A stretch of 64,000 bases of DNA, from NCBI RefSeq assembly GCF_003334315.1, contig NZ_QOWR01000020.1, one strand, 5' to 3'. The position numbers and the translations under genes are program-made. Each line of letters starts with the position of its first letter. Position 1 is the first letter of the stretch. This stretch comes from Escherichia coli (lineage in GTDB: Bacteria; Pseudomonadota; Gammaproteobacteria; Enterobacterales; Enterobacteriaceae). Below are positions 1 through 1,693 of this stretch, piece by piece. Under the pieces are notes generated by a model that saw nothing but the letters and a program-made list of their open reading frames with translations, had not been told where the DNA came from and searched no databases.

Positions 1-149
1 GGTTGAGAAGCGGTGTAAGTGAACTGCAGTTGCCATGTTTTACGGCAGTGAGAGCAGAGATAGCGCTGATGTCCGGCGGTGCTTTTGCCGTTACGCACCA
101 CCCCGTCAGTAGCTGAACAGGAGGGACAGCTGATAGAAACAGAAGCCAC
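1..149 (-). CDS. insA: IS1 InsA, N-terminal part only (GTG start at 149, truncated by window edge)
   Basis: Minus-strand translation from GTG at 149 gives [50 protein letters not shown], the InsA N-terminus. Confidence 0.85.
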
Positions 150-204
150 TGGAGCACCTCAAAAACACCATCATACACTAAATCAGTAAGTTGGCATCAT
201 CACC
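1..204 (-). mobile_element. IS1: IS1 insertion sequence, terminal ~204 bp including terminal inverted repeat; element continues beyond window start
   Basis: Reverse complement of 1..204 reads GGTGATGATGCCAACTTACTGAT... then the insA 5' region, matching the IS1 left end as recalled (one mismatch in the IR versus the canonical GGTGATGCTGCC). Confidence 0.9.
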
Positions 205-422
205 TAGTTTGTGATAACGACTGCTGGATTGATGATGAAGGGACGTACACCATTCACACCATTCATGCGTCTTATCAGTTCGCTAATGTGATGGATATGG
301 AGAACTTTAATATTTACCTCGGGACGTATTACTCCATTCTGGATAGCGACGGTGATAAAAAACACGGTGATGATACTGATGACCGTTACGGCGCACGCGT
401 TCGCTTTAAATACTTCTTCTGA
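205..422 (+). pseudogene. 3' remnant (72 codons) of an outer-membrane beta-barrel (porin-like, possibly KdgM/OmpL-family) gene, 5' part replaced by IS1
   Basis: Open frame from the IS1 boundary to TGA at 420-422 encodes ...TYTIHTIHASYQF...NFNIYLGTYYSIL...RYGARVRFKYFF with alternating beta-strand pattern and terminal aromatic FKYFF typical of OMP C-termini; no start codon or upstream gene body. Confidence 0.4.
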
Positions 423-462: not shown

Positions 463-777
463 TTAAGGCAGGTAAAACACTTCTTGCAGCTCGCTACTCA
501 CCGGGCTGTTATCCGGGTTAGCTGGCATAACGTCGGTCATATATTTCCACCAACGTTGGCAGATTTCAGTGCTGGCTACCGCATTCCAGCGTTCTTCAGA
601 TTCAATCTCTACCATGGCAAACAGCAGATTACGCGCTTTGTCGAGGTAAATGGCGTAGTTATGCGCACCGTGAGATTTCAACACTGCTTCCAGTTCCGGC
701 CAGATGGGGTTATGCCGACGCTGATACTCTTCGTGGGCGTCGGGGTTAACCTGCATGATAAAGGCTTTGCGGATCAT
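463..777 (-). CDS. rhaM: L-rhamnose mutarotase
   Basis: 104 aa [37 protein letters not shown]... matches RhaM (YiiL). Confidence 0.95.
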
Positions 778-1611: not shown

Positions 1612-1638
1612 GTTCTGTGTTCCTGTAAATTCGGTGTT

Positions 1639-1690
1639 GTCGGATGCACGACCCGTAGGCCGGATAAGGCGCTCGCGCCGCATCCGGCAG
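1639..1690. repeat. REP element in rhaA-rhaD intergenic region
   Basis: GTAGGCCGGATAAGGCGCTCGCGCCGCATCCGGCA palindromic unit. Confidence 0.8.
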
Positions 1691-1693
1691 TGT

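Follow-up and report, generated by a model that had tools for sequence, protein, structure and literature searches.

IS1 is a 768-bp insertion sequence of the DDE-transposase type. Members of its family are bounded by terminal inverted repeats of ~23–30 bp, the left one (IRL) starting GGTGATGCTGCCAACTTACTGAT; just inside IRL lies insA, whose product InsA is a zinc-finger/HTH repressor, and further family traits are the insB frame, an A6C –1 frameshift site that yields InsAB′ with its DDE motif, IRR and the total length of 768 bp. Published accounts of IS1 describe this anatomy together with an 8–9-bp target duplication, as well as a weak promoter, PIS1, that partly overlaps IRL (PMC12428005). 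The closest described relative of the second component of the locus is RafY, the glycoporin of the raffinose plasmid pRSD2 (Pfam PF16966, Porin_8), which according to literature cited in PMC4809568 is a sugar channel in the outer membrane; the chromosome of O157:H7 carries a rafY homolog (‘rafY2’) without rafRABD (PMC4809568).

The DNA analysed here is a 64,000-nt stretch of an Escherichia coli genome (hereafter the window), the first positions of which join an IS1 end to the tail of a RafY-like porin gene. Positions 1–204 (minus strand) are the left (IRL) end of IS1, that is, IS1 nt 1–204 of 768, and comprise the 23-bp inverted repeat, the promoter region and insA codons 1–49, with the window edge cutting the element. 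An earlier sequence-only reading had proposed an IS1 end in this orientation, containing the inverted repeat and the insA 5′ end and carrying one substitution in the repeat relative to the canonical form, and both proposals are borne out: 203 of the 204 bases are identical to IS1A of K-12 MG1655, and the sole mismatch, at window position 197, is position 8 of the repeat. Full-length matches to these 204 bases occur in 4,961 of 5,426 complete E. coli genomes, many of them at 100% identity (E = 9e-102). The repeat itself (GGTGATGATGCCAACTTACTGAT; 182–204, minus strand) matches the IS1-family repeat at 22 of 23 positions, with A for C at position 8. The 5′ part of insA (1–149, minus strand) begins with a GTG start at 149 and runs, as translation shows, for 49 codons plus 2 nt before continuing past the window edge, and alignment shows its DNA to be identical to K-12 insA1. 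A consensus scan placed a promoter-like site (ATGCCA–16 nt–TATGAT; 170–197, minus strand), of putative function, across the edge of IRL, and the variant base at window 197 is the first base of its –35-like hexamer ATGCCA. Compared with K-12 IS1 (IS1A/IS1E consensus type), the window copy thus has the same insA start, the same first 49 codons and a promoter-like site that overlaps IRL as PIS1 does, and differs in having A, not C, at repeat position 8. RefSeq names ends 100% identical to that of the window as both IS1A and IS1B, and the 204 of 768 nt in the window do not assign the copy to IS1A, IS1B or another isoform.

The substitution in the repeat is not confined to this copy. The reverse complement of window 193–204 reads GGTGATGATGCC, one substitution away from the canonical GGTGATGCTGCC, and the exact 45-nt variant end is present in 363 of 9,282 matching records, while in 8,065 of these records the best copy lies one mismatch from it. 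Among the matches listed, 100%-identical IS1 ends adjoin unrelated genes on chromosomes and plasmids. The presence of the allele beside unrelated genes at many sites implies that it has transposed repeatedly, and A at repeat position 8 is a recurrent minority allele and not a private mutation of the window copy.

Immediately beyond the IS1 terminus, window 205–422 (plus strand) is the 3′ remnant of a porin gene, a pseudogene fragment of 218 nt that holds the last 72 codons and the stop codon and is 100% identical to porin nt 1178–1395 of strain CP53. The intact gene in CP53 is 1,395 bp long, encodes 464 aa, is annotated ‘carbohydrate porin’, and lies between frvA and rhaM in convergent orientation with rhaM; from position 205 on, the window is colinear with and 100% identical to the porin–rhaM–rhaD region of that strain. 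The 464-aa CP53 protein covers positions 1–372 of 372 of Pfam PF16966 (Porin_8, ‘porin-like glycoporin RafY’; E = 7.7e-154), and a 43-aa remnant ORF in the window has a precomputed match to the same family. A search of NCBIfam with the porin found no model, and a PDB sequence search detected no solved relative. The intact ortholog of the disrupted gene thus fits the whole family model to which RafY of pRSD2 belongs. Unlike rafY of pRSD2, the disrupted gene is chromosomal and adjoins rhaM instead of a raf operon, and its role as a sugar channel is putative; the ‘rafY2’ of O157:H7, also chromosomal and also without a raf operon, may be the same gene. The porin 3′ end adjoins rhaM in about 2,589 of the 5,426 (~48%) complete E. 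coli genomes, and porin homologs with 60–80% identity are common on plasmids. With a GC content of 44.9%, the porin gene is AT-richer than its neighbours (50–56%).

K-12 lacks this gene. The sequence-only reading had stated that K-12 MG1655 has no IS1 at this position and that frvA there stands next to rhaM, and the K-12 locus agrees with it. Where the porin-bearing lineage has a 1,761-bp segment containing the gene, K-12 has ~150 bp of AT-rich sequence that is unrelated to it. Even without IS1, then, the locus would not be that of the reference, because the window's lineage has the porin gene and K-12 does not, and K-12, having no porin gene, is a poor reference for this spot. The same reading had placed IS1 directly downstream of the rhamnose locus; proximity to rhaM stands, but the porin remnant at 205–422 lies between the two, and this segment should be annotated as a broken porin tail and not as intergenic DNA.

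Several observations on the porin region were made alongside. No similarity to the porin region could be detected in the K-12 frvA–rhaM spacer (L001 6974–7123), which is ~150 bp long and AT-rich. Almost every background has the same last 218 nt of the porin (window 205–422 compared with 423–800 across loci L002–L041), including backgrounds whose adjacent 378 nt (rhaM) differ at 6–16 positions. One genome (L025, Logan ERR1789821, 8745–12528), ~91% identical over this part, carries the porin–rhaM pair in a different context, with aldB-like and Fe-ADH genes upstream of the porin and an Fe-ADH gene between rhaM and rhaD, from which it follows that the pairing of porin and rhaM is older than the E. 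coli frv context. In another locus (L022 8369–10132), which lacks all of the frvRXBA operon and the 5′ half of the porin, yiiG adjoins a porin fragment, and no IS gene was called at this yiiG–porin join.

The junction between IS1 and porin is exact. IS1 ends at window position 204 and meets the porin at nt 1178, within codon 393 of 464; the stop codon of rhaM lies 258 bp away. Across the site the intact gene reads ...TTCAGCGGTG|TAGTTTGTGATAACG, TTCAGCGGTG TAGTTTGTG being porin nt 1168–1186, whereas the window has the terminal C of IS1 before TAGTTTGTG; the base at this place in the intact CP53 porin is G. The nine bases at window 205–213 (TAGTTTGTG; porin nt 1178–1186) are the presumed right-hand copy of a target-site duplication, of which one copy is visible in the window. 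For retrieval of this insertion from other assemblies, the 40-mer AGTAAGTTGGCATCATCACCTAGTTTGTGATAACGACTGC can serve as a search string.

The 72 residues cut off from the porin make up the C-terminal fifth of the Porin_8 model, including the C-terminal beta-strands and the terminal ...KYFF, and to judge from this loss the truncated porin should be non-functional. Between the convergent porin and rhaM genes lies a GC-rich hairpin (430–456) that is likely a bidirectional terminator and that the insertion leaves whole; its folding energy is –29.7 kcal/mol (z = –6.4) for one strand and –26.6 kcal/mol (z = –6.1) for the other. Beyond it, the ORF list and colinear annotated loci show rhaM, encoding L-rhamnose mutarotase (463–777, minus strand), to be intact, as are rhaD, rhaA, rhaB, rhaS, rhaR and rhaT further on. 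Since the rhamnose genes and the hairpin are untouched, no polar effect on rhaBADM or on rhamnose catabolism is expected. The strain is probably without this RafY-like porin, which is relevant to studies of its sugar uptake or outer membrane.

A look-up of the 43-aa remnant ORF retrieved a second insertion at the same site, along with several others close by. In the draft genome GCA_003000595.1 (L023, PSQV01000007.1) a complete 768-bp IS1 occupies the same nucleotide in the same orientation as in the window, flanked on both sides by the 9-bp duplication TAGTTTGTG, the very sequence that the sequence-only reading had put forward as the target duplication. Upstream of this IS1, frvA, frvB, frvX and frvR are intact, and a 396-aa truncated porin is called there, matching the prediction for a simple insertion. 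The L023 copy differs from that of the window in having the canonical inverted repeat and one further SNP (2 of 204 positions), and over 10.2 kb of flanking DNA the identity to the window is no more than 97.6%, so that L023 represents a different background. The two insertions are either independent hits on a preferred site or one allele moved by recombination; the 97.6% identity of the flanks and the two differences in 204 IS1 bases favour independent hits without proving them. We rejected an argument for shared ancestry drawn from the identical 223 nt beside IS1 in the two genomes, because almost every background shares these bases unchanged and they are thus uninformative on descent.

The earlier suggestion that the insertion is strain-specific agrees with its distribution: the 5,426 complete RefSeq E. 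coli genomes, among which derivatives of E. coli B are to be expected, yielded no copy of the junction when searched with a 121-nt probe across it, and the only two full-coverage matches to the probe were IS1 insertions ~410 bp away. The junction was likewise absent from the GTDB representative genomes and, with either repeat allele allowed, from the JGI metagenomes, and the predicted 396-aa truncated porin, in three alleles taken from near relatives, was not recorded in a collection of gene positions; each of these three is a weak negative, as the source genome may lie outside the collection concerned. Look-ups of rhaM and of three possible remnant ORFs likewise gave no match with the window's own junction. 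To the right of the junction, several commensal, animal and clinical E. coli match the window at ~100% identity over the first 23.8 kb, and in the closest relatives examined the porin and the frv operon are intact. No other IS was found within the 64-kb window, which holds REP-type repeats only. We considered a Shigella origin and judged it unlikely, given the ~100% identity of these 23.8 kb to commensal and animal E. coli, the intactness of the checked ORFs and the absence of any other IS from the 64 kb.

We consider it probable that the junction arose by simple insertion of IS1 into the porin gene. The chromosomal RafY-like glycoporin gene between frvA and rhaM would have received IS1 in its 3′ part, after porin nt 1177/1186, with IRL toward the porin 3′ end and with insA transcribed away from the junction, as rhaM is. 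In its most likely form, the whole structure would then be porin nt 1–1186, IRR...IS1...IRL and porin nt 1178–1395, with a 9-bp duplication of TAGTTTGTG and an unchanged frv operon upstream. On the plus strand, the left side is predicted to read ...GAATTCAGCGGTG TAGTTTGTG, followed by the remaining 564 nt of IS1 with GGTAATGACTCC... at their outer end, while further left would come the porin 5′ part and, at a distance of ~1.65 kb, frvA; from a reading of the IRR sequence the product would be porin residues 1–395, Gly and a stop (396 aa). We infer that in the genome of the window IS1 is complete, the duplication present and the upstream context intact. As biology, this is already known: an ordinary strain-specific IS1 insertion that knocks out an accessory porin gene.

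Alternatively, IS1 may mark the junction of a rearrangement, whether a deletion adjacent to it, an inversion or deletion between IS1 copies, or the arm of a composite IS1-flanked transposon; something other than the 5′ portion of the porin would then lie to the left of IS1, and the frv operon might be lost or located elsewhere. IS1 does promote deletions and rearrangements (PMC12428005), and relatives in the lineage are rich in it, with a median of 10 and up to 68 IS1-end matches per genome. At this very locus, strain 100416 (L018 1948–3205) carries IS1 without a target duplication and lacks 647 bp of the porin (nt 14–660), which looks like an IS1-associated adjacent deletion, and the failure to find the predicted product of a simple insertion for the three porin alleles points the same way. 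Against these stand the six of seven fully readable IS1 events at the locus that are simple, the same-site insertion of L023 among them, and the colinearity of the window with relatives, which extends for 23.8 kb or more from the junction, with no other IS and no sign of a rearrangement within the window itself. We regard a rearrangement junction as unlikely. An artefact of assembly, in which contigs were wrongly joined at one of the repeated IS1 copies, is highly improbable. In its favour, IS1 is multicopy and often breaks or misjoins assemblies, and many draft contigs end in this region. Against it, a wrong join within the repeat would not cut the porin precisely at an IS1 terminus, yet the terminal nucleotide of IRL is exactly where the break lies, and IS1 independently uses the same target nucleotide, with a proper 9-bp duplication, in L023.

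Simple insertion is also the common outcome in the other genomes with IS1 in or just upstream of the porin, where five of six other events are simple insertions with 9-bp duplications. MIN14 (L003 5293–6060) and EC19 (L019 2437–3204) both carry IS1 at porin nt 766–774 in the same orientation, with the duplication TTAAACACG in each; the two copies are only 93.4% identical, from which it follows that two IS1 isoforms hit this site independently. The remaining simple insertions are those of CFSAN051542 (porin nt 1210–1218; duplication GAAGGGACG), EC09 (nt 1294–1302; duplication GGGACGTAT) and 19SZHZ869Rt (nt –35 to –27; duplication AGCGTAGGG). In B18271 and CM148361 the search alignment alone gives the same match geometry as the IS1 of EC09. 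Further IS1 copies were seen with one readable junction each: one abuts porin nt 1192 in a JGI metagenome contig (L028), and one in the opposite orientation abuts nt 1254 in two contigs (L027 and L020), its IRR lying at window-equivalent 281. Another contig (L026, ~340–400) has an IS903-like end (...TTCAACAAAGCC), with a product matching DDE_Tnp_1_5, that abuts porin nt 1181 (window 208 equivalent), so that an element of a different IS family sits at nearly the same spot, 3 bp from the IS1 site of the window. As a side observation, twelve draft or metagenome contigs of varied backgrounds (L029–L040) start at window-equivalent 289–297 in the porin tail, beside the opposite-orientation IS1 site, which suggests a widespread repeat insertion there.

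These insertions raise the question of whether the gene attracts IS1. From ~10 IS1 ends per genome, a 1.9-kb target, a ~5-Mb genome and 2,589 genomes, a rough calculation gives ~10 IS1 hits expected in the porin if targeting is uniform and independent, whereas the search, which could detect one orientation, showed hits in 8 genomes (6 events). Enrichment of IS1 at the level of the gene was thus rejected, there being no clear excess, and we therefore claim reuse at the level of the site only. With uniform targeting, it would be unlikely for two pairs of unrelated genomes each to be hit at one and the same nucleotide. A preference of IS1 for certain target sites is known from the older IS1 literature and fits the reuse seen in the porin, and these recurrent hits on identical nucleotides give a small example of such preference in natural genomes. 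The two same-nucleotide pairs, the IS903-like end, the IS1 copies at nt 1192, 1210, 1254 and 1293 and the breaks in draft contigs could also be taken to mean that the 3′ third of the porin is a true hot spot for several elements, or that loss of the porin is repeatedly selected, for instance because phages or bacteriocins use it as a receptor or a toxic compound enters through it; we hold this to be rather unlikely.

Two further features of the window concern repeats elsewhere in it. The rhaD–rhaA spacer (window 1612–1693) shows a length polymorphism of intergenic repeats: it measures 82 nt here and in L023, but CP53 has 174 nt and K-12 has 450 nt. At window 60354–60722 there are three tandem 123-nt units, all containing a REP-like palindrome, of which the second matches the first at 98% and the third at 85% identity, and further REP-like copies are scattered at window 10527, 34959 and 44796.
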